A DNA stretch of 64,000 nucleotides from an uncultured Gammaproteobacteria bacterium (GTDB lineage: Bacteria > Patescibacteriota > Microgenomatia > Levybacterales > GWA1-39-11). The notes beneath the pieces were generated by a model, which saw nothing but the letters and a program-made list of their open reading frames with translations, did no database searches and had not been told where the DNA came from. The DNA is taken from assembly GCA_964640435.1 (NCBI GenBank), contig CAZXFJ010000002.1:4175-68174 (forward strand). Reading direction: 5' to 3'. The position numbers and the translations under genes are program-made. Below are positions 9,460 to 64,000 of the stretch, one piece after another; position 1 is the first letter of the stretch, and each line of letters starts with the position of its first letter.

Positions 9460-10206
9460 ATGAAAGTATCCGTTGTTATACCCTCATTTAATGAAATGGG
9501 TAATCTTCGCAAAGGAACTCTGGACCACGTAGAACACTTTTTAGCAAGACAAAAGTTTGATTACGATGTAATTATCGTTGATGATGGATCAAAAGATGGC
9601 TCTAGAGAGTTTGTAAAAAAGTTTGTCGAATCAAACAGGAAATTTAAGCTAATTGAGAATAATCATATGGGTAAAGCTGGGGCTGTAACTACAGGTGTAC
9701 TTGCAGCAAGGGGAGATTACATTTTATTTACTGATATGGATCAAGCAACCCCAATTGAAGAATTAAGCAACTTATTGCCTTTTGTGGAAGATGGATACGA
9801 TATTGCTATTGGTTCTCGGGGAAAAGTTCGTCGGGGAGCTCCCTGGACAAGGCGTTTTATGGGGCAGGGTATGATAGTTTTAAGATCAGTTCTTGTGGGA
9901 TTTCCTGAAATTAAAGACACACAGTGTGGATTTAAGATTTTCAAGAAAAAAGCTGCACATGAAATATTTGAAAAGATTAAAAAAATCCATAATGGATTCA
10001 GAACGATAAAAAGCTCATCTGTCGCAGCAGGTTTTGATGTAGAGCTTTTGTATATTGCTGACAAAATGAAGTTTAAAATAAAAGAGGTTCCAGTCGACTG
10101 GCTATACGTTGAGACAAGGAGAGTTTCTCCACTCAAAGACTCAGTTGAGAGTGTACTCGATTTAGTAAGAATAAGAAAAAATATTTTCAAAGGAACTTAT
10201 GATTAA
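9460..10206 (+). CDS. GT2 polyprenyl-phosphate sugar synthase (DPM1/GtrB/CsbB-like)
   Basis: VVIPSFNE...DDGSKDGS, GKAGA, DMDQATP, DTQCGFKIF and GFDVELLY: the DPM1-like GT2 pattern. 248 aa. Confidence 0.85.
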   Translation: MKVSVVIPSFNEMGNLRKGTLDHVEHFLARQKFDYDVIIVDDGSKDGSREFVKKFVESNRKFKLIENNHMGKAGAVTTGVLAARGDYILFTDMDQATPIEELSNLLPFVEDGYDIAIGSRGKVRRGAPWTRRFMGQGMIVLRSVLVGFPEIKDTQCGFKIFKKKAAHEIFEKIKKIHNGFRTIKSSSVAAGFDVELLYIADKMKFKIKEVPVDWLYVETRRVSPLKDSVESVLDLVRIRKNIFKGTYD

Positions 10207-11344
10207 AAGACTTTTACTTCCTCTCTGGATTTTAGTGGCAATCGCTCTTTTCCTTTATTCCTTCACTCAAGTTGATCTATCTTTGACGTTTTCAAGCGCA
10301 GGAATTTTCCAAACTGTTCAAAAATATTTCCAGTATGTAGGATGGTTTAATAGGCCATTATCTACATATATATATGTAGGTATACTAGTTGCTATTTTTG
10401 CTCTTTATGGAATAACGCTACATTTAATAAACACAAAGAAAATTGAAAGAAAAAAGCTATTAACAATAGTTTTTGCAGTAACAGCTGTTTTATTTTTGTC
10501 ATACTGTGCATTTTCTTATGACATCTTTAACTACATTTTTGATGCAAAAATAATTACTCACTACAACCAGAATCCTTATGAGCATAAAGCTCTAGATTAT
10601 GCCGGTGATCCTATGTTGTCATTTATGAGGTGGACCCACAGAGTTTATCCTTATGGACCTTTCTGGTTAGTATTAACAGTTCCATTGTCATATGTTGGTT
10701 TTGGCATTTTTAGTTTCACGTTTTATTTGTTTAAGCTTCTAATGCTTGCTTCATTTGTGGGGACGGTTTTGCTTATCGAAAGACTTGCTAAAAAGCTTGA
10801 TTTTGATCCCCTTTTTGCTGTAGCAGCTTTTGCGCTTAATCCATTAGTTTTAGTAGAATCATTAGTGTCTTCTCATAATGATATTGTCATGATGTTTTTT
10901 GGACTTCTTGCAATATATCTTTTTTATGAGAAGAGATATATTACATCGTACTTTAGTCTTCTTTTTTCTATTCTAATTAAATTTGCAACGGTACTTGAAA
11001 TCCCCGCAATTCTTGCAAAAAGTATATTTAAGCTCAAAGATGAAAAGTTTTTTTATCTACTCATATTATGTATGATTGGTGGGGCGTTACTTGCGACATT
11101 TAGAACACAGTTTCAGCCCTGGTATCTTATATATCCACTTACATTTGCAGCATTTGTGCAGAAAAAATATTTTATTGCAATTCCAGTGTTTATTATTTCA
11201 ATCGCAGCTCTAATGCAATATATACCATATCTGTATTTGGGTAATTGGGATCCCCCAGTACCTTTTATCCTTAACTCTATAATGCTCGCTTCCGTAGTCC
11301 TCTCCGTGATTGTTATTGGAGGATATAAATTAATTAGAAGATAG
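10199..11344 (+). CDS. polytopic GT-C-like membrane glycosyltransferase (GT87/DUF2029-like)
   Basis: 381 aa with ~9-10 TM. First-loop motif SYDIFNY, then GDPM...YPYGPFW and SSHNDIVMM. A paralog with the same motif order sits at 46596. Confidence 0.5.
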   Translation: MIKRLLLPLWILVAIALFLYSFTQVDLSLTFSSAGIFQTVQKYFQYVGWFNRPLSTYIYVGILVAIFALYGITLHLINTKKIERKKLLTIVFAVTAVLFLSYCAFSYDIFNYIFDAKIITHYNQNPYEHKALDYAGDPMLSFMRWTHRVYPYGPFWLVLTVPLSYVGFGIFSFTFYLFKLLMLASFVGTVLLIERLAKKLDFDPLFAVAAFALNPLVLVESLVSSHNDIVMMFFGLLAIYLFYEKRYITSYFSLLFSILIKFATVLEIPAILAKSIFKLKDEKFFYLLILCMIGGALLATFRTQFQPWYLIYPLTFAAFVQKKYFIAIPVFIISIAALMQYIPYLYLGNWDPPVPFILNSIMLASVVLSVIVIGGYKLIRR

Positions 11345-11357
11345 TCCCAAATTCAGG

Positions 11358-11363
11358 TATAAT
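11358..11363 (+). promoter_or_regulatory. -10 box TATAAT 6 nt upstream of the ATG at 11370 (internal promoter, leaderless configuration)
   Basis: TATAAT at 11358-11363, then ttaatt, then ATG. Confidence 0.35.
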
Positions 11364-11369
11364 TTAATT

Positions 11370-12920
11370 ATGAATTTAAAGAATAAAAAGCTTTTGTTTT
11401 TTGGAAGTGCAATCTTAATAACTGTTCTTTATTTCGCGCTACGTTTATTTCATTTAACCTCACTACCACTTTTTACAGATGAAGCAATCTATATTAGATG
11501 GTCTCAGATTGCTGCACAAGATGCTAACTGGAGATTTATTTCTCTTACTGATGGAAAACAGCCGATGTATGTTTGGATTGCAATGCTACTCTTGAAGATA
11601 TTTAATGATCCACTTTTTGCCGGACGTCTAGTTTCGGTGATCGCTGGTTTTGGAACAGTAATAGGTTTATTTTTCTTAGGAAATGAATTATTCCGTGAGA
11701 AGAAAGAAAAAATATTTTCATTCACACAAAAAACTGTAACTATTGGGTTATTATCGAGCCTGTTTTATGTTATATATCCTTTCGGGTTAGTGTATGACAG
11801 AATGGGTCTTTACGATAGCTTAGTAGGAATGTTTGCTGTTTGGGCTCTTTATCTACTTGTTTTGCTCGTTAGAACCCTGAGGCTCGATGTGGCACTTCTT
11901 GCTGGACTTGTAATCGGTGGTGGGGTTTTAACGAAAACAAATGCATTCTCTTCTATTTATTCTATGCCACTTCTTCTGCTTATTTTTGGTTGGGGTGGAA
12001 AAGGCTTAAAGAATAGGCTTATTAAATTCTTCCTCTTATGTTTAGTTGTTGTAGTTCTTTCAAATGTGATCTACTCAGTATTAAGACTATCTCCATTTTT
12101 CCACATAATTGCACAGAAAAACGCTTTGTTTTTCTATCCAATAGGTGAGTGGATAAAGCATCCATTTACTTATTTATTTAGCAATCTAAGCGCTCTAGTA
12201 AACTGGTTAATGATTTACTTTTCCGTTCCTTTACTTTTGGTCATTGGGTCATTCTTTATCAACAAAAAAGACTTTTTTATAAAGGCAATGTTAGTGCTTT
12301 GGTTCTTGGCACCATTTTCGTTCTTGGCATTTTTTGGAAATACCATTTATCCAAGATTCATATTATTTATGACCTTACCTTTAATTCCGCTCGTTGCTTA
12401 TTCAATCGTTGAGTTGTTTGCGAGATATAAATCAAACATAGTAAGAGGCCTAATATTAATTATTGCTTTTGGCTTCTATATATATTCTGACTTTTTTATA
12501 CTCACGAATTTCGCGGTTGCCCCAATACCAAGAGCTGACAGGATTCAGTATATGAACTCATGGAGTGCCGGAAATGGACTTGCTGAATCAGTTGAGTTCT
12601 TTAAAGAACAATCAAAAGACAAAAAAATATATATCGTTACACAAGGAACATTTGGTCTGATGCCTTTTGGTCTTGAAATGTATTTGGTTGATAACCCAAA
12701 TATCAAAATTAATGCCTTGTGGCCTGTGAATAATACACCACCTGATGAAATAACTGAGATGGCAAAAAAGCTTCCTACTTATGCGATATTTTATCAGCCA
12801 TGTTCTTCGTGTGGAATTAGTGCAGGTAAGTTGCCTCAAGGATGGAACGGAAAACTAATTAATACTTACAGACAAGGAATTTCAGAGGACTACTATAGTA
12901 TTTATCAAATCCTTCCATGA
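11370..12920 (+). CDS. GT-C membrane glycosyltransferase, PMT_2/GT39-GT83 (ArnT/PMT-like)
   Basis: 516 aa, polytopic. First-loop LFTDEAIY... acidic DE motif, and GRLVSVIAGFGTVIGLF, typical of ArnT/PMT-family enzymes. Confidence 0.7.
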   Translation: MNLKNKKLLFFGSAILITVLYFALRLFHLTSLPLFTDEAIYIRWSQIAAQDANWRFISLTDGKQPMYVWIAMLLLKIFNDPLFAGRLVSVIAGFGTVIGLFFLGNELFREKKEKIFSFTQKTVTIGLLSSLFYVIYPFGLVYDRMGLYDSLVGMFAVWALYLLVLLVRTLRLDVALLAGLVIGGGVLTKTNAFSSIYSMPLLLLIFGWGGKGLKNRLIKFFLLCLVVVVLSNVIYSVLRLSPFFHIIAQKNALFFYPIGEWIKHPFTYLFSNLSALVNWLMIYFSVPLLLVIGSFFINKKDFFIKAMLVLWFLAPFSFLAFFGNTIYPRFILFMTLPLIPLVAYSIVELFARYKSNIVRGLILIIAFGFYIYSDFFILTNFAVAPIPRADRIQYMNSWSAGNGLAESVEFFKEQSKDKKIYIVTQGTFGLMPFGLEMYLVDNPNIKINALWPVNNTPPDEITEMAKKLPTYAIFYQPCSSCGISAGKLPQGWNGKLINTYRQGISEDYYSIYQILP

Positions 12921-15313
12921 AGCAAAAAGTAATTATTGTCTTGTTATCCTGCTTCATTGTTTTGGCATTCTTCTATCAATTATTTCAGGGTAAAGTACCG
13001 TTTCCAGGTGACCTACTTGTAAATCAGGAGCCTTATAGATCTGAATCCATCGACGGGTTTGTAGCTGGATCTATTCCTAATAAAGCTCAAGGACCGGATG
13101 TTATTCATGAGCTTCTTCCGTGGAAAAAATTTACTATTGATTCATGGAAAAACTTGCAAATCCCTTTTTGGGATCCTTATAACTTTTCGGGTAATCCATT
13201 AATGGCAAATTATCAAAGTGGCGTTTTTTATCCGGGAAATATAATATTCTTTATTTTAGATTTTTCTGATGCATGGAGTATTTATATCTTTTTAACTCCA
13301 TTCCTTTCAATCCTTTTTACATACCTTTTCTTGAAAAGATTAAAACTGTCGGATGCAGCATCTTTATTTGGTGGCCTTGCTTTTTCGTTCTCTCTTTATA
13401 TGACAGTTTGGATGGAATACGGGAACATAGGGCATACATTTTTATGGCTTCCTCTTATACTTTATTTTACCGATAGATTTGTTGAAAGAAATAATAGAGT
13501 AGCTTTTTTGGGAATTGTATTGTCTTCATTTGCGGCAGCATTAGCTGGATACATTCAAGGCCTTTTCTATATTTATGCAATCACATTTATTTATTTTCTT
13601 TTAAAAAGTAATTCCCTAAAAAAGCCAAACTCACGTAAAATATTCATTTTCATTTCTTCTTTGGCATTACCAATATTTTTAACTGCGTTTCAAATGTTGC
13701 CAACGCTTGAGCTATTTGGTGAGTCAACAAGGGGAAATTATTCCCTGGATCAAATCCAGAAGATGCTTAATCCGCTTTACTATTTGATAACTATAGTTGC
13801 ACCTGATTTTTTTGGAAATCCTGCAAGCAGAAATTTCTGGTTTGATGGTACATATATTGAGAGAGTTTCCTATTTTGGTCTAATACCTTTTGCTTTTGCA
13901 ATACTTGCAATCGTTTCAGTATTTAAACGAGTAGAGGTTAAGGTTTTTTCAATTCTATTTATTTTTTCATTACTTATTTCAACTGATCTTTTCATAACTC
14001 GTTTTTTCTATTTAATACCTATTCCTGTTTTATCAACAACAGTTGCTACAAGAATACTTTCTGTATTTGCTTTTTCAGGTGCGATTCTTGCAGCATTTGG
14101 ATTTGAGCAAGTTTTACAGAGTAAGGATAAGAAGAAAATGTTTATGATTTTTGGATTATTACTTGCAGTAATAATTGTAGCCTTTGTGTTTACTCTTGCT
14201 TACCCAAAGACTTTAAGTGATTTGACAGTAATTTCTCAGCTTGCAACATCAAAGCGTAATTTAATTATTCCTTTAGCGACACTCATTATTTTTGGCGGGT
14301 TAACATTTGTTTTTTATAATTTGAATCTTTTTAAAAAGTATAAAAAGATGATTTACGTATTTGTTATTTTTGCAATAACTTTCGCAGAATTGTTTTATTA
14401 TTTTCAAAAAATTACACCGTTTGCTCCTAAAAATTATATGTACCCAGAAACACCCATTATGTCTTTCCTACAAAAAGATGCGGGTATAAATCGGTTTTGG
14501 GGATATGGTACTGCATATATCGAAAGCAATTTTCAAACTTTTGATAAAACATACTCACCTGAAGGAAATGACCCGCTCCATATAAAAACATATACCGAGC
14601 TTTTATCAGTTAGCAAAGATGGAAAAGTCCCCGCATTACTTCCGAGGCCGGATGCAAATATTGCAAGTGGATATGGTCAGGAAGATCTTTCAAATAACTC
14701 TTATAGACAAAAGATATTAAATATCGTTGGTATTAAGTACGTCCTTAATAGGAGCGAGATTCTAACAGGAGATTATTCTCCCGATACGGTAACTTTCCCA
14801 GAAGAAAAATATAAGCTGGCTTGGCAAAAAGGTCTATGGCAGGCATATGAGAACAAGAATATAACTCAACGAATTTTTATTACAAATAAATATAAAGTTG
14901 TGAATGAAGATAAAGCACTTCAGACTTTATTGAATAAGGACTTTAATGAAAAAGAGACTCTGGTGCTGTATGAAGATCCAAAGATCAAGCAGAGTGATTT
15001 AAAACAAAGTCTAAAAGTTGATTCATATACACCAAATAAAATTACTATTTCAGCAAAAACTTCCTCCGATGCGCTTCTTTATGTGTCAGACAATTATTAT
15101 CCCGGGTGGATTGCAAGTATTGATGGTCAAGACAACAAGATATATTTGGCAAATTATACTTTCCGTGCTGTTGTTGTACCAGCAGGTGACCATAAGGTAG
15201 TTTTTGAATTTAAGCCACAAAGCTTTTATTATGGAATATATATCGCACTTGCCGGTCTAGCGGGACTGGTAATAATGCTTATTATTATTGGTAAAAAAAA
15301 GAATGAAAAGTAA
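12917..15313 (+). CDS. YfhO-family membrane glycosyltransferase (GT-C), paralog 1
   Basis: 798 aa. WDPYNFSGNPLMANYQSGVFYP, the conserved APDFFGNP block and a C-terminal YYPGW motif. Shared with the ORFs at 24050 and 28539. Confidence 0.8.
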   Translation: MKQKVIIVLLSCFIVLAFFYQLFQGKVPFPGDLLVNQEPYRSESIDGFVAGSIPNKAQGPDVIHELLPWKKFTIDSWKNLQIPFWDPYNFSGNPLMANYQSGVFYPGNIIFFILDFSDAWSIYIFLTPFLSILFTYLFLKRLKLSDAASLFGGLAFSFSLYMTVWMEYGNIGHTFLWLPLILYFTDRFVERNNRVAFLGIVLSSFAAALAGYIQGLFYIYAITFIYFLLKSNSLKKPNSRKIFIFISSLALPIFLTAFQMLPTLELFGESTRGNYSLDQIQKMLNPLYYLITIVAPDFFGNPASRNFWFDGTYIERVSYFGLIPFAFAILAIVSVFKRVEVKVFSILFIFSLLISTDLFITRFFYLIPIPVLSTTVATRILSVFAFSGAILAAFGFEQVLQSKDKKKMFMIFGLLLAVIIVAFVFTLAYPKTLSDLTVISQLATSKRNLIIPLATLIIFGGLTFVFYNLNLFKKYKKMIYVFVIFAITFAELFYYFQKITPFAPKNYMYPETPIMSFLQKDAGINRFWGYGTAYIESNFQTFDKTYSPEGNDPLHIKTYTELLSVSKDGKVPALLPRPDANIASGYGQEDLSNNSYRQKILNIVGIKYVLNRSEILTGDYSPDTVTFPEEKYKLAWQKGLWQAYENKNITQRIFITNKYKVVNEDKALQTLLNKDFNEKETLVLYEDPKIKQSDLKQSLKVDSYTPNKITISAKTSSDALLYVSDNYYPGWIASIDGQDNKIYLANYTFRAVVVPAGDHKVVFEFKPQSFYYGIYIALAGLAGLVIMLIIIGKKKNEK

Positions 15314-16859
15314 ATATGTCTTGCTTATTATTTTGATACTTCTTGTTATTCCATCTTTTTGGTTTTTGATAAAACCAGGTTTTATTACAACCGACGATGG
15401 TAATTGGATGATTATCAGATTTTCGGCTTTCTATCAGGCCTTACGTGATGGTCAATTTCCTGTAAGAGTTTTGGATCGTTTAAATTTCGGCTATGGTTAT
15501 CCTGTTACAAACTTCTTATACCCAGGCTTCATGTATTTGGCAGTTCCATTTAAAGCTTTTGGCCTAAGCTTTGTCATGACGATTAAGCTAGTAATAGCTC
15601 TTTGCATGATCGGTTCTGGTGTTTTTATGTATCTTTGGTTGGGCCGACTATACAACAGCGTTTCAGCGTTCTTTGCATCCCTTTTTTACGTTTATGCACC
15701 ATATCATCTTTACGACTTAAGTAGGAGAGGGTCTGTCGGTGAGCTACTTTCATTAGCTGTTTTTCCTTTCACGATGTGGCAAATTGAAAGACAAAGCTTG
15801 TTCTTTTCAGCGATTGGTTTCGCTTTACTTATTATTTCACATAATACACTTGCGATAATGTTTTTGGCATTAATTATTTCGTACGCAGCTGTATCAATCT
15901 ATGCTTCTGAAAATCGTAAATTACTTATGGAGTTTTATTCAAGGTTAATAATTTTTGGACTTGGGATTTCTGCCTTTTTCTGGCTACCAGCCTTATTTGA
16001 ATTACAAAATACAGCTTTTTCTAAAACAAAAATTTCTGACTTCTCCAAATATTTTGCAGACTACAATCTTATTGGATTAACAACTATTTTGATTTTTGTT
16101 GGAACAATTATTGTTTTTATTATAAAGACAAGTTTAATAAAAAAAGAATACAAAACGATTTTAATGCTGACTTTGGGAATTGTTACAGCATTTTTAGCAA
16201 GTAATTTAAGTGAGGTGCTATGGCATGTTCTTCCGGTATCATTTATTCAATTTCCGTTTAGGATGCTTTCAGTAACAATTATTGCAGCATCTTTTGTACT
16301 TGCTTTCTGTCTCTCTCAAGTCGAGATGAGGATAAGAATAGCAGTTGGTATCGTTTTTATTGCTGTGACAATTGTTTTATCTTACAAACTTTTAATTCCA
16401 ACTTCTTTTAATTTAGAACAAGATGGTTTTTATTCCACAAATGAGGCAACGACAACAGTTCTTGATGAATATATGCCAGTTTGGGTTAAGGATAAGCCTT
16501 TGGGACATTTCGAAGAGAAAGTAAAAGTTATTCAAGGAGAAGGTGGAATACAAAATGTTTCCGCTAATTCAAAAAATATTTCATTTAATTTTGTATCAAA
16601 TTCTCCAGCAGTTGTGAGCGTATCAACTATTTATTATCCTGGATGGAAGGCATATGCAAATGGAAAAGAAAAGGCAATATTTTTTGATAACAGGAATGGG
16701 TTGATTGAGTTAAAACTTGAGGGAAGGAATCAAAAGGTAGAATTAAATTTTGGAGAAACTACAATGAGATTACTTGCAGATATTGTTTCTATTCTCTCTC
16801 TTATTTTGCTCTTCACTATAACTTTATACAAACCTGTTTTAAAATATATAAATAAATGA
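15303..16859 (+). CDS. short YfhO-related GT-C-like membrane protein (H-D-G motif family), member 1
   Basis: ATG at 15303 is preferred over the TTG at 15288. N-terminal TDDGNWMIIRF...FPVRVLDRLNFGYGYP motif and C-terminal YYPGWKAY. Confidence 0.6.
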   Translation: MKSKYVLLIILILLVIPSFWFLIKPGFITTDDGNWMIIRFSAFYQALRDGQFPVRVLDRLNFGYGYPVTNFLYPGFMYLAVPFKAFGLSFVMTIKLVIALCMIGSGVFMYLWLGRLYNSVSAFFASLFYVYAPYHLYDLSRRGSVGELLSLAVFPFTMWQIERQSLFFSAIGFALLIISHNTLAIMFLALIISYAAVSIYASENRKLLMEFYSRLIIFGLGISAFFWLPALFELQNTAFSKTKISDFSKYFADYNLIGLTTILIFVGTIIVFIIKTSLIKKEYKTILMLTLGIVTAFLASNLSEVLWHVLPVSFIQFPFRMLSVTIIAASFVLAFCLSQVEMRIRIAVGIVFIAVTIVLSYKLLIPTSFNLEQDGFYSTNEATTTVLDEYMPVWVKDKPLGHFEEKVKVIQGEGGIQNVSANSKNISFNFVSNSPAVVSVSTIYYPGWKAYANGKEKAIFFDNRNGLIELKLEGRNQKVELNFGETTMRLLADIVSILSLILLFTITLYKPVLKYINK

Positions 16860-27418: not shown

Positions 27419-27460
27419 TTTAACAACTATTTAGGTTGTTATGCAGTACTTTAGTTGTTA
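27419..27460. promoter_or_regulatory. operator-like repeat set between divergent promoters
   Basis: TAACAACTA at 27421-27429 is the exact reverse complement of TAGTTGTTA at 27452-27460. A third near-copy, TAGGTTGTTA, lies at 27432-27441. The distal half-site overlaps the -10 box of the downstream operon. Confidence 0.4.
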
Positions 27461-27464: not shown

Positions 27465-27472
27465 TAAATATC

Positions 27473-56133: not shown

Positions 56134-56945
56134 AAAGAAAATTAAGAATTTATTGTATTCTCGCTGACGAAAATTTATTCCATCCTCATTATTTTAATGG
56201 AATAATAAAGGGGCTTAGTAAAAAAGGTTATAAGGTTGTTGGTTTAACACTTGCGCTGGATAAATATAAAAGGGGTTTTGCAAATGCTGTATTTGAACAA
56301 ATATACTTATGGGGCTTATTACCATTTGCATTTATTGCTACAAACTCATTAGTCAGAACCGGTCTCTTTCGGTTAGGTTTATTAAGGCATAAGACTGTTC
56401 GTGGAGTCGCTTTACTACATAATATACCTGTTTACGAAACTTTTAATGTAAATGATAAGACGCACCTCTCTTATCTATCCAAAAAAAATATAGATATCAT
56501 TATTTCTTCAAATGGACAAATTTTTAAGAAAGATTTACTTAAGCTTCCTAAAGTTGCTGCAATAAATAGGCACTCTGCATTGTTACCCTCTTATGGAGGG
56601 GTATTGCCAATCTTTTGGGCTATGAAAAAAAAGGAGAAAAAGCTTGGAACTAGTGTACATTATATGGTTGAAAAGATAGATAAAGGTGATATTCTAGCAC
56701 AATATTCGTTTGAGAACGAAAAGGGGAGTTCACTATTCGAGAACTATATGTACGCATTCAATTTAAGTATTCCTGCGACTATCGATGCAATTGAAAATAT
56801 TTTAAACAAGAAAACGATAAAAAAGTTTAGACACAATAAGAATGAATATTTTTCTTTTCCAGAGAGAAAAATGATAAAAATGTTTAAGAAAACCAACAAG
56901 CCTTTTAGACTGAAAGATGTTATGAAATTTTATACAATATATTAA
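56130..56945 (+). CDS. sugar N-formyltransferase (Fmt/ArnA-FT-like formyl_trans_N domain)
   Basis: NRHSALLPSYGG...HYMVEKIDKGDILAQ matches the N-x-H...SLLP-x-Y-R-G...H...D-x-G catalytic core. GTG start overlapping the upstream stop. Confidence 0.7.
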   Translation: MKRKLRIYCILADENLFHPHYFNGIIKGLSKKGYKVVGLTLALDKYKRGFANAVFEQIYLWGLLPFAFIATNSLVRTGLFRLGLLRHKTVRGVALLHNIPVYETFNVNDKTHLSYLSKKNIDIIISSNGQIFKKDLLKLPKVAAINRHSALLPSYGGVLPIFWAMKKKEKKLGTSVHYMVEKIDKGDILAQYSFENEKGSSLFENYMYAFNLSIPATIDAIENILNKKTIKKFRHNKNEYFSFPERKMIKMFKKTNKPFRLKDVMKFYTIY

Positions 56946-58273
56946 TGCTTAAACTTATCCGTACTAATGTATACCTGTTGTTACTTCTTGCTATACTTGC
57001 TCTAGGCTTGATGCTTAGGACAAATAACTTGTATACCTGGCCAAGACTTGGGGCAACATTTGATGAATACGCTTGGACTTGGCAAGGAATGAATATTATA
57101 CAAAAAGGAGTTCCTATCTCTTGGTCACCACATCCTCAATATAAAAATGCAAAAGATATAATTTATCAACGAACTCATTTCAGAATTGTTACACCATTTT
57201 TAGAACACCCGCCAATATTTGGTTTAGTTGCAGGATCGTTTGCAATTATTAATGGAGCGGACGACATGTATCATTTAACTATCGAAAATATTCGGCCTCT
57301 TGCGGTTATTCTTGGCCTCTTATCAATATTAATGGTGTTTCTCTTAACGTCTGAAGTATATGACAAAAAAACTGGTCTAATCGCCTCACTTATTTACACG
57401 ATTATTCCAACGATTGCTGTAGGTTCGCGAATTGTTCAGAATGAAAACTTTTTTATTCCTTTTTGGCTTCTCTCTCTTTGGCTAATTGTTAAATATATAA
57501 AAAATAAAAGGTCTCTCTATATGTATTTTGCTGCAATAATCTGCGCATTACTTGTTCTTGCAAAGATACCCTGGATTGCCGCTGCTGGATCTATATTTTT
57601 AATCTTTATGTACTTGAAGCAATACAAAAACGCATTTATCTTTTTCATGATTCCTATTATCTCGCTCGTCATGTTTGTCATATACGGCTTCTATTTTGAT
57701 AAAGACGTTTTTATTAATCTATGGGCACTTCAATTAAATCGATACGATATAGCTTTTAATAGCATTTTTGCTCTTTTTACTGAGCCTTTTTTGGCAGATA
57801 GATATACAGTTGATGGGTGGATCTATTTTGGATGGTTTGCCTTCATTTTATTACTCGTATCTGATTTTAAGAAAAATTATCCCGTTATTTTGGGGCTACT
57901 CGCGTACTTTTCAATCTTTATCTTCGCCATCCCCAATGAAGCTGGACATGGTTGGTATAGATATCCGTTTTATCCCTTCCTTGCTATTTCGCTAGCAATT
58001 TTTCTGAAAGAGTATTACAAGAAAAACATTCTACTTACGTTCTTTTTTATTGTTTTTGTTGTAACTTCGCTTTTACAACTTTCATATGGTGTAAGCGTGG
58101 GCTTCTCATTTAAAATTTTTAGAGTTTTTCTACTATCTACAACTCTTATACTTCTCCCTCTGTTCTTTACGAATAAAAATTTAGTTAAACTCTCGCATTT
58201 ATATTGTAATGCAATGCTTGGTGTAATTTTACTGTTAAGTATTTGGTCAATTCTAAACTATAATGAGCAATAA
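56945..58273 (+). CDS. GT-C membrane glycosyltransferase, GT39/GT83 (ArnT/PMT-like)
   Basis: 442 aa, polytopic. First-loop TFDEYAWTWQG acidic DE motif. Confidence 0.6.
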   Translation: MLKLIRTNVYLLLLLAILALGLMLRTNNLYTWPRLGATFDEYAWTWQGMNIIQKGVPISWSPHPQYKNAKDIIYQRTHFRIVTPFLEHPPIFGLVAGSFAIINGADDMYHLTIENIRPLAVILGLLSILMVFLLTSEVYDKKTGLIASLIYTIIPTIAVGSRIVQNENFFIPFWLLSLWLIVKYIKNKRSLYMYFAAIICALLVLAKIPWIAAAGSIFLIFMYLKQYKNAFIFFMIPIISLVMFVIYGFYFDKDVFINLWALQLNRYDIAFNSIFALFTEPFLADRYTVDGWIYFGWFAFILLLVSDFKKNYPVILGLLAYFSIFIFAIPNEAGHGWYRYPFYPFLAISLAIFLKEYYKKNILLTFFFIVFVVTSLLQLSYGVSVGFSFKIFRVFLLSTTLILLPLFFTNKNLVKLSHLYCNAMLGVILLLSIWSILNYNEQ

Positions 58274-59114
58274 TATGAAAATATTAATTACAGGTGGGGA
58301 TGGTCAATTGGCAAAATCTATAGCTGGATTTTATCCAGATGAAAATCTTGTTCTTGTAAGTAAAAAAGATCTTGATGTTACTGATAGGGATGGTGTTTTT
58401 CAAAAAATATCTGAACAAAAACCTGATATAGTATTTCATTTTGCATCACTTACTCGAGGGGATGAATGCACTAAAAATCCTGAGCTGGCGCATAAAATAA
58501 ATGTTGTGGGCACGGAAAATGTTGTAAAGGCAGTAAAGAGGTTAGGTATTGAACTGGTTTTTGTAAGTACTAACGAAGTTTTTGACGGGGAGAAAAAAGA
58601 TCCTTATACTGAAGATGATTCACCAAATCCAATAACCGTTGTTGGTGAAACGAAATATGATGCTGAAAAGAAAATTAGGGAAAATTTGGAAAAGTACTAC
58701 ATTATTAGAACTTCCTGGCTATTTAGTAAATGGAGTAACAATTTTCTCCAGGCCATATTTAAAAAAGCAAAAGATAAGAAAAGGGTGGAGCTTGTCGTAG
58801 ATGAAGTAAGTTCACCTACATATTCAATAGATCTTGCAAAAGCTATTAAAGAGCTTGTTGATACAGGTAAATATGGGATATATAACCTGGCAAATTCGGG
58901 ACAAGCATCACGCCTTGAGTTTGCAAAAAAAGCATTTGAGTTAAAAGGACTATCTGATGTTGAAATTAATCCTTTACCTTTAGCCTCTTTTAATAGGTTA
59001 TCAAAGCCACCTCTTTTTACTCCGTTGTCTATTAAGAAGGCAAACGGCTTAGGTATTAATATCAGAGACTGGGAAAGTGCATTAGCTGAATTTCTTTCAG
59101 AGAACAATATATGA
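58263..59114 (+). CDS. dTDP-4-dehydrorhamnose reductase-like (RmlD-type) nucleotide-sugar reductase
   Basis: ILITGGDGQLAK Rossmann motif. Catalytic block TKYDAEKK (Y-x3-K) and STNEVFDG. The alternative start at 58275 gives MKILITGG. Confidence 0.7.
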   Translation: MSNNMKILITGGDGQLAKSIAGFYPDENLVLVSKKDLDVTDRDGVFQKISEQKPDIVFHFASLTRGDECTKNPELAHKINVVGTENVVKAVKRLGIELVFVSTNEVFDGEKKDPYTEDDSPNPITVVGETKYDAEKKIRENLEKYYIIRTSWLFSKWSNNFLQAIFKKAKDKKRVELVVDEVSSPTYSIDLAKAIKELVDTGKYGIYNLANSGQASRLEFAKKAFELKGLSDVEINPLPLASFNRLSKPPLFTPLSIKKANGLGINIRDWESALAEFLSENNI

Positions 59115-59956
59115 AAAAAAATAAATTAATTTCTATTGTTATTCCTACTCGAAATTCTGCAATAGTTTTGGAGAATTGTCTCAAAAGCATAAAAGAGCAA
59201 AATTATAAACCCGTAGAAGTGATTATTGCTGATGGTAGATCCACTGATAATGTTCGTGAACTTGCTGAAAAATATAATTGTCGATATTTTAAGTACAAAA
59301 CACACTTACGTGAAGTCTATTTTGATGCGCCTCACAAAATTAATTTTGGTGCGTCCAAAGCCAGGGGAGATTATATATATTGGTTAGATGCTGATATGGA
59401 ATTAACCCCCAATCTTCTCGCAGAAGCGGTAAGGCTTTGTGAAGAGGGGGCTGGTGCTGTAATTTTACCTGAAGATTCATTCGGAGAAGGGATTTGGGCA
59501 AAAGCGAAACAACTTGAAAGAAGATGTTATTGGGGTGATGATTCTGTAGAATCTCCAAGATTTTTCAAAAAAAGTGTCTGGGAGGAGATTGGTGGATTTG
59601 ATTTATCCCTTGGTGCTGGAGGAAATGACTGGGATCTACATATACAAGTTCTTGAACATGGATACAAAGTTGCTCGAACAAAAAATATTGTACGACATAA
59701 TGAAGGAAATTTAAATCTAATAAAACTTTTTAAAAAAAGATTTATGTATGGTAGAGAAGCAGTTAAGTATATTGGTAAAAGACCCAAAGCGAGTTTTGCC
59801 AACTTCTTTCCGATAAGGTATTCCTATATTAAAAACTGGAGAAGTTTCGCCAAGCAGCCAATAACTACTGGCGCTTTTGTAGTAATGCGTACGGTTGAGT
59901 ATACTGGAGGATTTTTGGGAATTGTTACTAATTCAATGGAGAAGAAGAAAAAATAA
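59111..59956 (+). CDS. GT2 glycosyltransferase
   Basis: ISIVIPTRNSA...IIADGRSTDN and LDADMELTP. 281 aa. Confidence 0.75.
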   Translation: MKKNKLISIVIPTRNSAIVLENCLKSIKEQNYKPVEVIIADGRSTDNVRELAEKYNCRYFKYKTHLREVYFDAPHKINFGASKARGDYIYWLDADMELTPNLLAEAVRLCEEGAGAVILPEDSFGEGIWAKAKQLERRCYWGDDSVESPRFFKKSVWEEIGGFDLSLGAGGNDWDLHIQVLEHGYKVARTKNIVRHNEGNLNLIKLFKKRFMYGREAVKYIGKRPKASFANFFPIRYSYIKNWRSFAKQPITTGAFVVMRTVEYTGGFLGIVTNSMEKKKK

Positions 59957-60055: not shown

Positions 60056-61057
60056 ATGATAAAGAAAACAAAAAAAACTATAAAATCGAGAGGTAAAACA
60101 GCGCTAGTTTTAGGTGCCGGAGGTTTTATAGGTAACCACTTAGTAAAAAGGCTTAAATCCGAAGGGTACTTTGTTAGAGGAGCTGATATCAGAAAACCAG
60201 AATACGGAAAAAGTCTTGCCGATGAATTTATGATTGTTGATCTTCGAAGGCAAAAAAGCTTTGAGAAGGTTATGGATAAGCCATTTGATGAGGTATATCA
60301 GCTTGCAGCAGATATGGGTGGGGCTGGTTATATTTTCACTGGTGAACATGATGCAGATGTAATGCATAATTCTGCATTAATTAATCTAAATGCTCTTCAG
60401 TATGGACAAAAAGCAGGAATAAGGAAAATATTTTTCTCCTCATCTGCATGTATATATCCTGAACACAATCAAGTTGATCCTGATAATCCAAACTGCGAAG
60501 AATCTTCAGCTTACCCAGCAAATCCGGATAGTGAATATGGTTGGGAGAAGTTGTTTAGCGAGAGAATGTTTCTTGCATATCATAGAAATTATGGCATGAA
60601 TATTAGAATAGCAAGATTCCATAATATTTTTGGTCCAGAGGGAGCTTGGAATAATGGTAAAGAAAAGTCACCAGCAGCAATATGCAGGAAAATTGCGCAA
60701 GCACCTGATGGTGGAACAATTGAGATGTGGGGTGACGGCGAACAAACACGCACATACCTATATATAGATGAGTGCCTGGAAGGTGTAAGACGATTAATGG
60801 ACTCAGACTTTACAGGACCAGTTAACTTAGGTTCAGATGAAATGGTAAGTCTTAACGAGCTTGCTGAAATGGTAATGAAGATTGCAGGCAAAAAAGTTAA
60901 AATTAAACACATTAAGGGGCCCTTAGGTGTGAGAGGTAGAACTTCTGATAATAAGCTAATTAAAAAGAAATTAGGTTGGAAACCTAAGCAACCACTTGTT
61001 GACGGTATGACAAAGACATATGAGTGGATAAATGAACAAGTTAGGAAAGCAAAATAA
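60056..61057 (+). CDS. GDP-mannose 3,5-epimerase-like NAD-dependent nucleotide-sugar epimerase
   Basis: LAADMGGAGYI, FSSSACIYPE, RFHNIFGP, SPAAICRK, MWGDGEQTR, YIDECLEGV and GSDEMVSLNE reproduce the block order of plant GME. Confidence 0.8.
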   Translation: MIKKTKKTIKSRGKTALVLGAGGFIGNHLVKRLKSEGYFVRGADIRKPEYGKSLADEFMIVDLRRQKSFEKVMDKPFDEVYQLAADMGGAGYIFTGEHDADVMHNSALINLNALQYGQKAGIRKIFFSSSACIYPEHNQVDPDNPNCEESSAYPANPDSEYGWEKLFSERMFLAYHRNYGMNIRIARFHNIFGPEGAWNNGKEKSPAAICRKIAQAPDGGTIEMWGDGEQTRTYLYIDECLEGVRRLMDSDFTGPVNLGSDEMVSLNELAEMVMKIAGKKVKIKHIKGPLGVRGRTSDNKLIKKKLGWKPKQPLVDGMTKTYEWINEQVRKAK

Positions 61058-61059: not shown

Positions 61060-61872
61060 ATGATTAAAAATTTGGTAATTGGTTCTGATGGATTTATTGG
61101 TAAACCTTTTTGTGAGTATCTATCACAAAAAGGGGAAGAAGTTATTCGTTTTGACATTAAGCGAAACAGTAAGGAAGATGGTAGAAGCTATAAATTTGAT
61201 CTTAAAAAAATAGACAGGGTATATTTTTTAGCTTGGGATGTTGGGGGTTCAAAATACTTATACGATAAAAAACTTCAAATGGGGCAACTTAAGTGGAACC
61301 TCGACTTAATGCGTAATGTGTTTGACGCAATAGAGAAAGAGAAAAAAGATTTCCTTTTTGTTTCTAGTCAATTGGCTGAGGAATGTGACACAGTATACGG
61401 CGTAACTAAAAGACTTGGCGAAGTATGGACTAGTGAACTTGGAGGAGTTTGTGTTAGGGTTTGGAATGCGTATGGTTATATGGAGCCAAACGATGTTAAA
61501 AGTCATGTGATATCCGATTTTGTTCATCAAGCTCTCACCACAAAAAAAATAAAAATGATGACAAAAGGAGAGGAGTCAAGACAGTTTACTCATATAAATG
61601 ATCTCTCAAAATCATTTCATATGGCACTTTCTTTGAAAAATCGTACTCGAACAGTATTTGACGCAAGTAGCTACGAGTGGGCTAGGATTATAGATATTGC
61701 AAATATAATAGCAGAATTAACAGGTGCAAAAGTAATTCAAGGAAAGAGTAATGGGCATGATCCATTACCTTCAAAAAACATGGGTAGAGTTCCCGGATGG
61801 CTTCCCGGTATCACCCTGCGCGATGGAATAAGCGCGATGATTGATCAGGCCAAAAGTATAAATAATGGCTAG
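61060..61872 (+). CDS. short SDR-family NAD(P)-dependent epimerase/reductase
   Basis: IGSDGFIG glycine-rich loop and YGVTK (Y-x3-K). 270 aa. Confidence 0.55.
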   Translation: MIKNLVIGSDGFIGKPFCEYLSQKGEEVIRFDIKRNSKEDGRSYKFDLKKIDRVYFLAWDVGGSKYLYDKKLQMGQLKWNLDLMRNVFDAIEKEKKDFLFVSSQLAEECDTVYGVTKRLGEVWTSELGGVCVRVWNAYGYMEPNDVKSHVISDFVHQALTTKKIKMMTKGEESRQFTHINDLSKSFHMALSLKNRTRTVFDASSYEWARIIDIANIIAELTGAKVIQGKSNGHDPLPSKNMGRVPGWLPGITLRDGISAMIDQAKSINNG

Positions 61873-63103
61873 CAAAGTTAATAACCCTCTTTCAAAGAAT
61901 TCAACTATCCTCTTCTTAACATTTTCAAGATGGGTTGATGGAAAGCGTCTTCCTACAACAGGTAGTCTTGATCCCTTAAGAGATTATTTGGTTCCTAAAA
62001 TTAAAAAACTAGTGATTATTGACCAGGTTCATCCAGGGAGTGATAGGGTAATGCCAATAATTGAGGAGTATAAAGATCAAAGTGGAAAGGTTAAGCTTCA
62101 CAAGTCTTCATGGGTAGTATATTTATTAAAACCATTCTTGCCTTTAAATGGAACTCAGAAGACCCAAATTTCATATAAGTTAAGAGATTTTCTTTCAGTA
62201 ATAGATTGGTCTTTCCGAGATAAAACCAAATTCGATTACTATATCTGCCTTGAAAGTATTAATGCCATAGCAGCTATTTTGATGAGAAAAATGGGAAGAG
62301 TAAAAAAAGTAGTTTATTATGTTTCTGATTACTCCCCTAAAAGATATCCAAGTAAATGGTTTAATTACGTATATCTAATGCTCGATCGATTTGCAGCAAT
62401 GCATTCTGATTACATATGGGATGTATCACCAGCAATGCAGAAAGCACGTATTAGCATAGGACTTGATCCTAAAAAATCTGCTCCAGTGATCGATGTTCCT
62501 AATGGTTTATATCCTGCACAGATTGAAGCAAATCCTATTTCTAAAATTGATAAACACTCTTTTATATATATGGGTACAGTCGGAGCTGAGAATGGACCTG
62601 ATATTGCTATAAAAGCTTTGGCAATTGTTAGAAAAAAATTTAAAGATGCAAAACTTCATATAATTGGAGGTACAGAAAAAGATTTTGAGTGGCTTGCAAA
62701 ACTTGTAAAAAAATTAAAACTTGAAAAAGCAGTAATTTCACATGGTTTTGTTGAAGATGGACTTGAAATGTCTAGAATCATAAGATCTTGTGCGATAGGA
62801 GTTGCTCCGTATCGTGATATTCCTGGTTCAATAAGGCACTATGCAGATGCTGGTAAAATTAGAGCATATTGTGCATCAGGTTTGCCAGTCGTAAGTTCCC
62901 ATGTTCCTCCGCTTGGCTTAGAAGTTGCAAAAAAGGGAGCAGCAATCGTTGTTAAAGATACTCCGGAGGAATTTGCAGATGCAATAATGGATATTTTTTC
63001 AAATAATTCTTTGTATTTAAAATTAAGGAAAAATGCTATTCTTTTTGGTAAAAATAACACATGGAATAATACATTTAAAAATGCATTCTCAAAAATGAAA
63101 TGA
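61865..63103 (+). CDS. GT-B glycosyltransferase (GT4-like)
   Basis: 412 aa. C-terminal Rossmann domain with IYMGTVGAENG...HIIGGTE and VAPY...ASGLPVV. TGA stop. Confidence 0.6.
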   Translation: MASKVNNPLSKNSTILFLTFSRWVDGKRLPTTGSLDPLRDYLVPKIKKLVIIDQVHPGSDRVMPIIEEYKDQSGKVKLHKSSWVVYLLKPFLPLNGTQKTQISYKLRDFLSVIDWSFRDKTKFDYYICLESINAIAAILMRKMGRVKKVVYYVSDYSPKRYPSKWFNYVYLMLDRFAAMHSDYIWDVSPAMQKARISIGLDPKKSAPVIDVPNGLYPAQIEANPISKIDKHSFIYMGTVGAENGPDIAIKALAIVRKKFKDAKLHIIGGTEKDFEWLAKLVKKLKLEKAVISHGFVEDGLEMSRIIRSCAIGVAPYRDIPGSIRHYADAGKIRAYCASGLPVVSSHVPPLGLEVAKKGAAIVVKDTPEEFADAIMDIFSNNSLYLKLRKNAILFGKNNTWNNTFKNAFSKMK

Positions 63104-63999
63104 AGAAATCTATCAAGAAGCAACAAGGCGGACACGATTTTAACTATGAAGAAGTTATTATGGGTGTGTTTCAGGGGAGAAAAAAAGGTTTTGCAAAGGA
63201 GATTTACCAGAAAAAACCTGAACTTCGAAGAGTTGTGGATATGGTCAAAATTAAAAAAGGAAGATTACTTGATATTGGTTGTGGAGGAGGGTATGTTACA
63301 GAGTGTCTTCCAAAATATTACCCAAAAGTAAAAATATATGGTTGTGATGTAAGTGCCACAGCAATAAAATATGCGAAGAAGTTTGGAACAGGCAAAGTAT
63401 CATACAAAGTTATGCAAAAAAAGCTTCCATACCCCTCCAATTATTTTGACGCAATAACTTGTCTTGATGTTCTGGAGCATATTCCAGACGTTGATTTTTT
63501 TATTCGTGAGGTAAGAAGAGTATTGAAAAAAGATGGTGTATTTTTCGGTGCAATTCCATGTGAAGGACAACCATTTACATTTAGTTGGTTTTTTAGAAAA
63601 GTAGGTTTTTGGGGTGATCTAACATATAAACATGTTGGGCACATTCATCCCGAGTTTACTCATAAGTACGTCATGGATCTTTTCACAAAAAAAGGTTTTG
63701 AAGTTGTTGATAAAAGATATGCAGAGAGACTTCCCGTACAATTTCTCCGATATTTCCAATTCATGATTCCTAAAGAAATTTTCGAACTTTTCGTAGGTGA
63801 GAAAAAGGCTTCTGCATATTACGACAGAAGCATTGCTGTGAGTAAAGTTGTAAAAAAAGATCCTTTTATGTTTTTGAGAAATTCATGTTATAAAATTCGC
63901 GACTACACAAAAATAATTGATGATATTGATGCCGAGAAATTTAAAAATTCCTCTTTTGGGGCTTGGAAAATAAACTTACTCGTATCTGTTAAAAAATAA
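63100..63999 (+). CDS. class I SAM-dependent methyltransferase
   Basis: LDIGCGGGYVT motif I, YGCDVS and LDVLEHIPD. 299 aa. Confidence 0.8.
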   Translation: MKKSIKKQQGGHDFNYEEVIMGVFQGRKKGFAKEIYQKKPELRRVVDMVKIKKGRLLDIGCGGGYVTECLPKYYPKVKIYGCDVSATAIKYAKKFGTGKVSYKVMQKKLPYPSNYFDAITCLDVLEHIPDVDFFIREVRRVLKKDGVFFGAIPCEGQPFTFSWFFRKVGFWGDLTYKHVGHIHPEFTHKYVMDLFTKKGFEVVDKRYAERLPVQFLRYFQFMIPKEIFELFVGEKKASAYYDRSIAVSKVVKKDPFMFLRNSCYKIRDYTKIIDDIDAEKFKNSSFGAWKINLLVSVKK

Positions 64000-64000
64000 G

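Follow-up and report, generated by a model that had tools for sequence, protein, structure and literature searches.

The DNA analysed here, referred to as the window, is a stretch of 64,000 nucleotides (nt) of contig CAZXFJ010000002.1 (GenBank assembly GCA_964640435.1), and its subject is a glycosylation gene cluster that occupies positions 9460-63999. A mechanical list of open reading frames (ORFs) and a table of their junctions place 44 genes in this block at a coding density of about 99%, 43 of them on the plus strand (Table 1). An earlier note on this DNA had described a single-strand block of almost purely glycan machinery with one exception of 77 amino acids (aa). This description stands: the exception, at 27157-27390, is a real member of the DUF5652 family, and the polytopic proteins include no transporters except two Wzx-type flippases. 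The note had also counted twelve 4-nt ATGA overlaps between start and stop codons; eleven are certain and one is possible, but one of the certain overlaps is GTGA, the other ten being ATGA. The sole plus-strand gap near 100 nt lies at 59957-60055, as stated there, and measures 99 nt.

The cluster runs past the end of the window. An overlapping contig from the Logan assemblies (L001) carries on with further cluster genes after 64000, so the full cluster is about 63 kb or more in length, likely some 7-8% of a sub-megabase Levybacteria genome. Positions 10904-19744 of this contig, equivalent to window positions ~64003-72843, encode a hexapeptide acetyltransferase, a minus-strand GDSL lipase, a second methyltransferase and two paralogous proteins of 748 and 783 aa with 13 transmembrane (TM) segments, which have neither a Pfam match nor a profile link to the membrane glycosyltransferase families of the window. 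Each of the latter genes is followed by one for a paralogous 5-6-TM protein (336 and 315 aa, 27% identical). Logan assemblies of four other sequencing runs match window positions 512-15268 and 53100-64000 at 99.99% identity or more, and GC content is even over 10001-64000 (0.30-0.36). A chimeric contig, named in the earlier note as what would overturn its account, is ruled out by these independent assemblies and by the collinear gene order of relatives. A horizontally acquired island is rejected as well: no break in GC content is seen, and conservation of the cluster extends through the class.

Enzymes encoded in the cluster

Membrane glycosyltransferases of the GT-C fold class form the largest group. 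Eighteen polytopic proteins other than Wzx are encoded in the block, and all were assigned to GT-C by Pfam, profile/family links or predicted fold. Thirteen score above the Pfam gathering cut-off: six are PMT_2 (g14, g31, g33, g34, g36 and g49), three YfhO (g15, g23 and g27) and four PTPS_related (g16, g17, g22 and g42). Three were placed by profile/family links (g13, g35 and g40) and two by AlphaFold models alone (g30 and g41). About five families are represented, namely PMT_2, YfhO, PTPS_related, MptA_B and a new family comprising g30 and g41. As judged from their scores, g13 and g40 are members of the MptA_B superfamily and not equivalogs. An acidic pair (DE or DD) about 10 residues past TM1 is conserved in the PMT_2 and PTPS_related proteins, whose short N-termini bear K/R; by hydropathy and charge, these features are consistent with an N-in topology and a catalytic loop facing outward. 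A reassignment of the polytopic proteins to transporters, which the earlier note had named as a refutation, fails on the Pfam scan of every gene, on hhalign and on fold, the two Wzx being the sole transporters. The redundancy does not stem from recent tandem duplication either, as in-window paralogues are mutually 26-36% identical. Nor is a cluster-wide C-terminal acceptor-binding domain supported, the C-terminal domains forming separate groups (PTPS_related with YfhO; a PMT_2 group; g30 with g41 and the secreted or anchored protein g32). In its C-terminal domain g32 shares about 25% identity with the extracytoplasmic C-terminus of the g30 family (hhalign 79%), and no counterpart of g32 is found in the loci of relatives. 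Searches of PDB sequences with g13, g27, g32, g33, g41 and a g30 profile gave nothing useful. No described locus is known to match this density of GT-C genes, as the earlier note held.

The non-membrane glycosyltransferases identified by Pfam comprise ten of family 2 (GT2: g12, g18, g20, g21, g24, g28, g29, g37, g45 and g51) and four of family 4 (GT4: g26, g43, g46 and g54), and the flippases are two Polysacc_synt_3/Wzx proteins (g19 and g44). Pfam, profiles and fold reproduce the earlier tally of ten GT2 (four of them DPM1/GtrB-like), four GT4, two Wzx and 18 GT-C. The four small soluble GT2 proteins of 237-259 aa (g12, g18, g29 and g45) form one paralogue group of the DPM1/ArnC/GtrB type. 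Because their best NCBIfam names, all sub-threshold, are among PgfS, AglJ, ArnC, PpgS and dolichyl-P hexose transferase, a role as polyprenyl-phosphate-sugar synthases is credible at family level; the PDB matches of g18 to ArnC, GtrB and Pyrococcus dolichol-P-mannose synthase (DPMS) span the whole catalytic domain. All four genes adjoin GT-C genes and two adjoin a Wzx gene (9460/10199; 15288-19100 with Wzx at 19104; 28539-32453; 49455-54192 with Wzx at 52170).

The cluster also encodes sugar-modifying enzymes, as the earlier note had listed. GalE and RmlD exceed their NCBIfam cut-offs. Family-level assignments hold for the carbohydrate esterase family 4 (CE4) protein, the formyltransferase, two short-chain dehydrogenases/reductases (SDRs) and the methyltransferase; the formyltransferase g48 is not Fmt. 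Two small membrane proteins, DUF5652 (27157-27390, minus strand) and DUF5667-like (46081-46599, plus strand), belong to families seen here only in genomes of the Candidate Phyla Radiation (CPR) type. By analogy with GacJ they could be accessory subunits.

Table 1. Genes of the cluster within the window, with the evidence for each assignment
Gene	Product or family	Coordinates	Strand	Evidence
g12	Soluble GT2, DPM1/ArnC/PgfS-type candidate polyprenyl-phosphate-sugar synthase	9460..10206	+	Glycos_transf_2 99 bits; NCBIfam sub-threshold PgfS/ArnC/PpgS/dolichyl-P hexose transferase; 0 TM
g13	10-TM GT-C, MptA_B family (polyprenol-P-mannose mannosyltransferase-like)	10199..11344	+	PF26314 (precomputed, identical protein); NCBIfam MptA 59 bits (cut-off 439), MptB 35.4 bits (cut-off 40)
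g14	GT-C, PMT_2 (ArnT/PMT-like)	11370..12920	+	PMT_2 46.1 bits (cut-off 26.1); invariant D37-E38 after TM1
g15	GT-C, YfhO	12917..15313	+	YfhO 89.1 bits; 30-34% identity to paralogues g23, g27
g16	GT-C, PTPS_related	15288..16859	+	Pfam 32 bits (cut-off 26.4); conserved D36-D37 in loop 1; hhalign 98.8% to YfhO family
g17	GT-C, PTPS_related	16856..18388	+	Pfam 59.8 bits; conserved D35-D36
g18	Soluble GT2, polyprenyl-phosphate glycosyltransferase type	18381..19100	+	PDB best: ArnC (2e-18), GtrB sll0501, Pyrococcus DPMS; NCBIfam sub-threshold PgfS/AglJ/ArnC; median 64% identity to relatives
g19	Wzx/MOP-type flippase, 12 TM	19104..20561	+	Polysacc_synt_3 157.7 bits; NCBIfam sub-threshold MOP flippase/O-glycosylation flippase/TuaB
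g20	GT2, cytoplasmic glycan-building type	20562..21485	+	Glycos_transf_2 84.8 bits; paralogue of g24, g37
g21	GT2, rhamnosyltransferase/EpsD-like	21487..22398	+	Pfam; NCBIfam rhamnosyltransferase subfamily 68.5 bits, sub-threshold
g22	GT-C, PTPS_related	22401..24053	+	Pfam 42.9 bits
g23	GT-C, YfhO; comparative-genomics anchor	24050..26374	+	YfhO 82.1 bits
g24	GT2	26387..27151	+	Pfam 79.4 bits
g25	77-aa two-TM DUF5652 protein, sole minus-strand gene	27157..27390	-	DUF5652 81.1 bits, E 4.8e-23
g26	GT4	27455..28534	+	Glycos_transf_1 79.5 bits
g27	GT-C, YfhO	28539..30809	+	YfhO 105 bits
g28	GT2, EpsD/rhamnosyltransferase-like	30806..31771	+	Pfam; NCBIfam sub-threshold
g29	Soluble GT2, AglJ/DPM1-type; last gene of block A	31740..32453	+	Pfam 129.4 bits; NCBIfam AglJ 117 bits (cut-off 325), PgfS, dolichyl-P hexose transferase
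g30	13-TM protein of uncurated GT-C-fold family, C-terminal alpha/beta domain; first gene of variable cassette	32489..34423	+	Predicted fold
g31	GT-C, PMT_2/PMT	34423..36066	+	Pfam; invariant D36-E37
g32	Secreted/anchored protein, 668 aa: signal peptide, DUF3863-like domain, 2 TM	36091..38097	+	Weak DUF3863, PDB 3lm3; sequence features
g33	GT-C, PMT/PMT_2	38119..39771	+	Pfam
g34	GT-C, PMT_2	39774..41429	+	Pfam
g35	GT-C, divergent PMT_2 relative	41438..42958	+	No Pfam match; hhalign 99.4% to g36, 97.3% to g34
g36	GT-C, PMT_2	42945..44273	+	Pfam 36.3 bits
g37	GT2; first gene of block B	44308..45096	+	Pfam; equal position in L085, L086, L087
g38	UDP-glucose 4-epimerase GalE	45093..46064	+	NCBIfam TIGR01179 402.9 bits (cut-off 262.3)
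g39	Small DUF5667-like protein, one N-terminal hydrophobic segment (TM or signal peptide)	46081..46599	+	DUF5667 26.7 bits (cut-off 27)
g40	GT-C, MptA_B/GT87-like	46596..47708	+	33% identity to g13, hhalign 99.8%; weak GT87; counterparts in L085, L086, L087 with PF26314
g41	Second member of g30 superfamily, predicted GT-C fold	47705..49513	+	Predicted fold
g42	GT-C, PTPS_related	49455..51143	+	Pfam 40.1 bits
g43	GT4	51127..52170	+	Pfam 111.4 bits
g44	Wzx/MOP-type flippase, 11 TM	52170..53429	+	Polysacc_synt_3 73.8 bits
g45	Soluble GT2, DPM1/ArnC/PpgS-type	53413..54192	+	Pfam; NCBIfam sub-threshold PpgS/ArnC/PgfS; paralogue of g12, g18, g29
g46	GT4	54189..55289	+	Pfam 120.2 bits
g47	CE4 polysaccharide deacetylase family, possible ArnD-like lipid-sugar deformylase/deacetylase	55282..56133	+	Polysacc_deac_1; PDB matches generic CE4 only
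g48	Formyltransferase, sugar N-formyltransferase candidate	56130..56945	+	Formyl_trans_N; PDB: Fmt, ArnA N-domain, GDP-perosamine formyltransferase; NCBIfam fmt 71.5 bits (cut-off 201.5), ArnA 68.6 bits
g49	GT-C, PMT_2, ArnT-like size (442 aa)	56945..58273	+	PMT_2 51.6 bits; D40-E41 after TM1
g50	dTDP-4-dehydrorhamnose reductase RmlD	58263..59114	+	NCBIfam TIGR01214 232.3 bits (cut-off 224.05)
g51	GT2	59111..59956	+	Pfam 87.2 bits
g52	SDR epimerase/reductase, GDP-fucose-synthase-like	60056..61057	+	Pfam Epimerase; NCBIfam Fcl 112 bits, sub-cut-off
g53	Short SDR epimerase-family protein	61060..61872	+	Pfam Epimerase 66.9 bits
g54	GT4	61865..63103	+	Glyco_trans_1_4/Glycos_transf_1
g55	Class I S-adenosylmethionine-dependent methyltransferase	63100..63999	+	Methyltransf_11

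Conservation of the cluster in relatives

The YfhO gene g23 was used as the anchor of a search in one genome per GTDB species, which yielded 173 relatives. The best 80 loci, with 42-59% protein identity to the anchor, were kept, and each of their ORFs was labelled after the window protein that it matched best. Nearly all of these loci come from metagenome-assembled genomes (MAGs) titled Levybacteria/Levyibacteriota, Gottesmanbacteria, Microgenomates or Patescibacteria, the others bearing uninformative or placeholder titles, and the source of the window is an uncultured bacterium of groundwater type with a Levybacteria (Microgenomates, CPR) genome. Dozens of third-party-annotation (TPA) MAGs with this cluster (L004, L005, L012 and others) are titled 'uncultured Gammaproteobacteria bacterium', evidently a placeholder or mistaken name. 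One locus (L016, JAWAAV010000009.1), titled Candidatus Pacearchaeota archaeon, possesses a GT2-GT2-YfhO-GT4-YfhO-GT2-GT2 block at 49% identity; this bacterial block on a DPANN-binned contig is due to mis-binning or else to transfer between domains.

The conserved gene order falls into two blocks with a variable cassette between them. Block A (window ~11370-32453) shows in almost every locus the order (PMT_2, YfhO or MptA_B)-PTPS-PTPS-GT2(DPM1-type)-Wzx-GT2-GT2-(PTPS or GT2)-YfhO-(GT2)-GT4-YfhO-GT2-GT2(DPM1-type), where PTPS stands for PTPS_related. The paralogues keep their positions: the GT-C directly upstream of GT4 is of the g23 type in 74 of 74 loci, that directly downstream is of the g27 type in 74 of 74, and the trio before Wzx consists of the g16 type, the g17 type and a DPM1-type GT2 in 59 of 65. 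Block B (window 44308-55289 and onward) has the order GT2-GalE-DUF5667-MptA_B-g41-like-PTPS-GT4-Wzx-GT2-GT4 and is shared by the closest relative, a further Levybacteria genome and one Gottesmanbacteria genome, where the GalE-type epimerase is lacking and the g41 homologue is 28% identical. The DUF5667-like gene g39, directly upstream of the MptA_B and g41-like pair, is kept in both Levybacteria and Gottesmanbacteria. The Gottesmanbacteria block B (L086) also bears inserted genes for an AAA ATPase (DUF4143) and a protein of the bAvd/23S_rRNA_IVP family (15042-16199 and 18347-18718), bAvd being the kind of accessory protein that belongs to diversity-generating retroelements.

The closest relative, GCA_964452165.1, has the cluster on a 650-kb contig, of which three overlapping loci cover at least 51 kb (~8%), and the overall order is collinear with that of the window, the sole exception being a CE4/formyltransferase pair that has moved. 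Blocks A and B are linked and co-oriented in the three relatives in which both were examined on one contig or nearby. The upstream flank of the cluster differs fully between the closest relative (L084 1-9080: Lon, LigD, Ku and DUF72) and the window (1-9422: PurK-like, rhodanese and adenylosuccinate-lyase-like), and therefore the cluster has been kept as a unit while its surroundings were rearranged. How many PMT_2, YfhO, g30-like and methyltransferase genes the PMT_2-rich cassette at 32489-44273 contains, of which type and in which orientation, differs by species, g30 being absent at its position in many relatives, and the cassette may be a source of species-level variation. The hypervariability that the earlier note had considered is thus confined to this cassette. 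Simple-sequence repeats, homopolymer tracts and long direct or inverted repeats suitable for switching are absent from the window, by which phase variation or a shufflon is ruled out. The fixed order in relatives, the low identity of the paralogues, the lack of repeats and the agreement of assemblies indicate that, except for the middle cassette, the cluster is native, ancient and under order-preserving constraint.

The g30/g41 family

g30 and g41 are homologous over their full length (hhalign 99%) and belong to a family without a Pfam model, whose members carry only the name 'hypothetical protein'. Among 1.84 billion clusters it has 1,562 representatives with E <= 1e-3, and it was seen here only in Levybacteria/Gottesmanbacteria-type (Patescibacteria) genomes and metagenome contigs. 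The AlphaFold models (g30, pLDDT 89.9 and pTM 0.91; g41, pLDDT 91.7 and pTM 0.93) robustly predict a GT-C fold, with about 13 TM helices and a C-terminal extracytoplasmic domain as in STT3/AglB/PglB. At E <= 1e-5 the Foldseek matches of g30 are DPY19 and the oligosaccharyltransferases (OSTs) AglB, STT3 and PglB and nothing else, with TM-scores of 0.38-0.48, and those of g41 rank ALG12, AftA, AglB, STT3B and ArnT; ALG12, ALG9, STT3B and AglB are among the top structural matches of the two models.

At the sequence level, none of 85 family members matches Pfam STT3 (PF02516) even at E <= 1, no OST among PDB sequences was found by the g30 profile, and a WWDxG or WWD-type motif occurs neither in any cluster protein nor in the invariant columns of the family alignments A1 and A2. 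Weak matches are those of 4 of 44 g41-family members to Pfam Dpy19 (PF10034) and of 10 of 41 g30-family members to DUF6541. The earlier note's statement that none of the membrane enzymes resembles an OST therefore holds for sequence but not for structure, as the models match OST catalytic subunits and DPY19. True OSTs are ruled out as far as family membership is concerned, by the lack of WWDxG and of an STT3 profile match, and the relation is at most a functional analogy of low probability; from the models, an affinity to the peptide-directed STT3/DPY19 branch is possible.

Proposed assembly pathway, its alternatives and known systems

The cluster is probably a native, lineage-conserved and fixed system for the multi-step assembly of glycans outside the cytoplasm, rather than the combinatorial diversifier proposed in the earlier note. 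Nucleotide sugars would be supplied as UDP-Gal/Glc via GalE, dTDP-rhamnose via RmlD, a formylated amino sugar, and a 6-deoxyhexose via the SDRs. The four small GT2 enzymes would charge polyprenyl phosphate with monosaccharides, and the other six GT2 with the four GT4 would most plausibly assemble a lipid-linked oligosaccharide; it is because these ten further enzymes are present that a lipid-linked glycan would be built in the cytoplasm as well. Lipid-linked intermediates would then be flipped across the membrane by the two Wzx, and outside it the 18 GT-C enzymes, using lipid-linked sugars, would lengthen, branch and complete a conserved glycan, or a few of them; the acceptor may be a lipoglycan, a wall polymer or a surface protein. 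As the paralogues are ancient and both gene order and positions are fixed across the class, the GT-C steps would be non-redundant, and sequential or branching.

Several points weigh against this assembly line. Its function is predicted from homology, and the four small GT2 score far under every NCBIfam equivalog cut-off. A small GT2 gene beside GT-C genes fits separate modules equally well as one line, and a conserved gene order means constraint and does not prove a single pathway. Scans for promoters and terminators in the block gave results at or below shuffle expectation, which does not speak for a single operon. As the earlier note had remarked, a priming phosphoglycosyltransferase (Bac_transf/WbaP, MraY/WecA) and a Wzy are lacking: the former has no Pfam match among the 55 window genes and five downstream genes (~9 kb), and the same holds in the window and ~9 kb beyond for Wzy_C/O-antigen ligase, EpsG, Wzz and LCP (LytR_cpsA_psr). 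Every polytopic protein of the window block is GT-C or Wzx, leaving no Wzy candidate. The glycan primer may be encoded elsewhere in the genome, or an AglJ-like GT2 may prime on polyprenyl monophosphate, as it does in Haloferax.

Among the alternatives, a serious but lesser possibility is that several unrelated envelope pathways with different acceptors lie side by side, brought together by genome streamlining and co-transcription, for example a lipomannan-like Ppm1 and MptB pair, teichoic-acid-type YfhO glycosylation and an Arn-like aminosugar module. The GT-C families indeed have differing known acceptors elsewhere: lipomannan for MptA/B, lipid A for ArnT and proteins for PMT. YfhO acts on lipoteichoic and wall teichoic acids (PMC5836110). 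The variable cassette splits the two conserved blocks, and the CE4/formyltransferase pair has another place in the closest relative; yet no TagF/LtaS (no Pfam match in the window or ~9 kb beyond), PI-mannoside or lipid A genes are found in or near the cluster, and blocks A and B stay linked in the three relatives examined for both. The reading of the earlier note, in which many parallel modules of a lipid-linked monosaccharide donor and a GT-C generate a combinatorial and fast-changing diversity of surface glycans, appears unlikely. Its donor/GT-C logic stands. In its favour, each of the four DPM1/ArnC-type GT2 genes lies beside GT-C genes, g45-g49 echo the Arn pathway, and the stretch past 32453 differs by species, even in the strand of its PMT_2, YfhO and g30-like genes. 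Monosaccharide decoration leaves the ten other GT2 and GT4 enzymes unexplained, however, and against diversification stand blocks that remain fixed in order and paralogue position in about 80 species-level genomes, the lack of recent duplicates (identity <=36%) and the absence of phase-variation tracts, cassettes and invertible repeats. For the conserved blocks, the note's view of more than one pathway is likewise not upheld.

A general protein glycosylation pathway of the archaeal Agl or eukaryotic ALG type, with g30/g41 as the OST- or DPY19-like protein-directed transferase, is improbable too. An AglJ/DPM1-like GT2 would start on polyprenyl monophosphate (for which no phosphoglycosyltransferase is needed), GT2 and GT4 would extend, a Wzx (AglR/RFT1-like) would flip, and GT-C enzymes would add sugars outside. 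The best NCBIfam match of g29 is AglJ, the cluster encodes no phosphoglycosyltransferase, the only significant Foldseek matches of g30 are DPY19 and OSTs, and to these are added the weak Dpy19 matches in the g41 family, the protein O-mannosyltransferases among PMT_2 relatives and a methyltransferase, such as the Haloferax pathway also has. On the other side stand the missing WWDxG motif, the failure of Pfam STT3 (no match in the window or ~9 kb beyond) and of the g30 profile to recover any OST, TM-scores no higher than 0.48, and the position of g30 in the variable cassette. A more specific form has g30/g41 as a bacterial branch of the STT3/AglB/DPY19 clade and the cluster as an ALG/Agl-like pathway ending on surface proteins, in which DPM1-type primers and donors would be followed by an MOP-type flippase, serial outward-facing GT-C extension and final transfer to surface proteins; this must be considered a long shot. 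If true, ultrasmall episymbiotic bacteria would be heavily coated with glycoproteins by a pathway organised like that of the eukaryotic endoplasmic reticulum, and one prokaryotic gene cluster would let the entire pathway logic be dissected. An artefact, either a chimeric contig or transporters mistaken for glycosyltransferases, is scarcely credible given the agreement of four-run assemblies, the collinear relatives and the assignment of 18 of 18 polytopic proteins to GT-C.

The fixed assembly system favoured here shares its logic with several known systems. In multi-component transmembrane glycosylation, a GT-A enzyme makes a C55-P-sugar, which is moved across the membrane by a flippase and used outside as the donor of a GT-C (PMC8035078). 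The Gram-positive systems CsbB/GtcA/YfhO, GtlA/GtlB and GacI/GacJ/GacK/GacL combine, as here, a donor GT2, a flippase and a GT-C with an acidic motif in the first outer loop, and likewise use the YfhO and PMT_2 families. The Gac variant (PMC8035078; 10.1101/180810), with a non-membrane GT2/GT-A, a Wzx-type flippase and a GT-C, matches the cluster. Gram-positive genomes, however, contain one GT-C per module and a few scattered modules, whereas here 18 GT-C (with probably more past the window), four donor synthases and two Wzx stand together; no GtrA-type flippase was found among the genes scanned with Pfam, and no acceptor-polymer genes were identified in the cluster.

Mycobacterial GT-C genes lie scattered across 4.4 Mb of genome, and no more than about five are known from the emb/aft region. 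The synthesis of mycobacterial and corynebacterial lipomannan, lipoarabinomannan and arabinogalactan (Ppm1, PimE, MptA-C, AftA-D, EmbA-C; for PimE, PMC12041525) resembles the proposed pathway in its serial, non-redundant GT-C steps outside, fed by a DPM1-type GT2; g12 with g13 resembles Ppm1 with MptB, and both g13 and g40 fall in the MptA_B Pfam family. In contrast to mycobacteria, the cluster shows no evidence of phosphatidylinositol anchors, arabinose donors (DprE/UbiA) or mycolate-type envelopes. The ALG/Agl pathways (DPM1/ALG5/AglJ/AglD, RFT1/AglR, ALG3/9/12/6/8/10/AglS, STT3/AglB) are alike in their GT2 and GT4 steps, MOP-type flippase and GT-C steps on lipid-P-sugars, but the cluster is bacterial and has no canonical STT3/AglB. 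As in the Arn pathway, g45-g49 unite an ArnC-like GT2, a GT4, a CE4 protein, a formyltransferase and an ArnT-like PMT_2, and by this analogy they may constitute a self-contained Arn-like aminosugar module. They differ from Arn in lacking the ArnB aminotransferase, the ArnA decarboxylase domain and ArnE/F (EamA-type), in scores under the equivalog cut-offs and in a gene order not kept in the closest relative; lipid A, moreover, would not be expected in this lineage. Streptococcal Pgf/GtrB O-glycosylation (10.1101/2022.10.10.511621; PMC11092751) is similar in joining a GtrB/PgfS-type GT2, an epimerase and a GT-C that acts on surface proteins. In NCBIfam both g12 and g18 match PgfS best, but far under cut-off, and Pgf has four genes as against 44 here.

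All components of the cluster belong to known superfamilies, and the logic of donor synthase, flippase and GT-C is already established. What is new is the scale and organisation, with at least 18 GT-C of five or more families, four donor synthases, two flippases and ten other glycosyltransferases in one co-directional, class-conserved cluster, and the presence of at least one uncurated GT-C family. CPR genomes are smaller than 1 Mb and lack most biosynthesis, and the retention of a cluster that spans 55 kb or more in so tiny a genome suggests that the cell surface is central to what these presumed episymbionts invest in and conserve, with attachment, host recognition and protection from phage or predators as suggested uses of a surface glycan. 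About 20 GT-C enzymes stand here together beside their likely donor synthases, including at least one uncurated family with a predicted OST/DPY19-like fold, and such a small natural collection makes the pairing of donors and acceptors experimentally approachable. Glycosylation has hardly been studied in this phylum. In a Microgenomates genome 29 glycosyltransferase genes have been counted (PMC7143001), and glycosylation in Saccharibacteria has been termed 'unexplored' (PMC11623550). No description of GT-C clusters, YfhO/PMT_2 or OSTs in Patescibacteria was found in the open-access full-text literature.

Upstream of the cluster, window positions 1-9422 contain 11 genes, six on the plus and five on the minus strand, of housekeeping content: besides the genes named above for this flank, they include AlkZ-like and uracil-DNA glycosylase (UDG) genes and the halves of a chromate transporter. 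The latter are two adjoining half-size Chromate_transp genes at 1130-2252 (minus strand), weakly paralogous to one another. A plus-strand ORF of 429 aa at 2298-3587, matching no Pfam family at E <= 0.01, lies beside the UDG (4199-4744) and AlkZ-like (4741-5802) genes.

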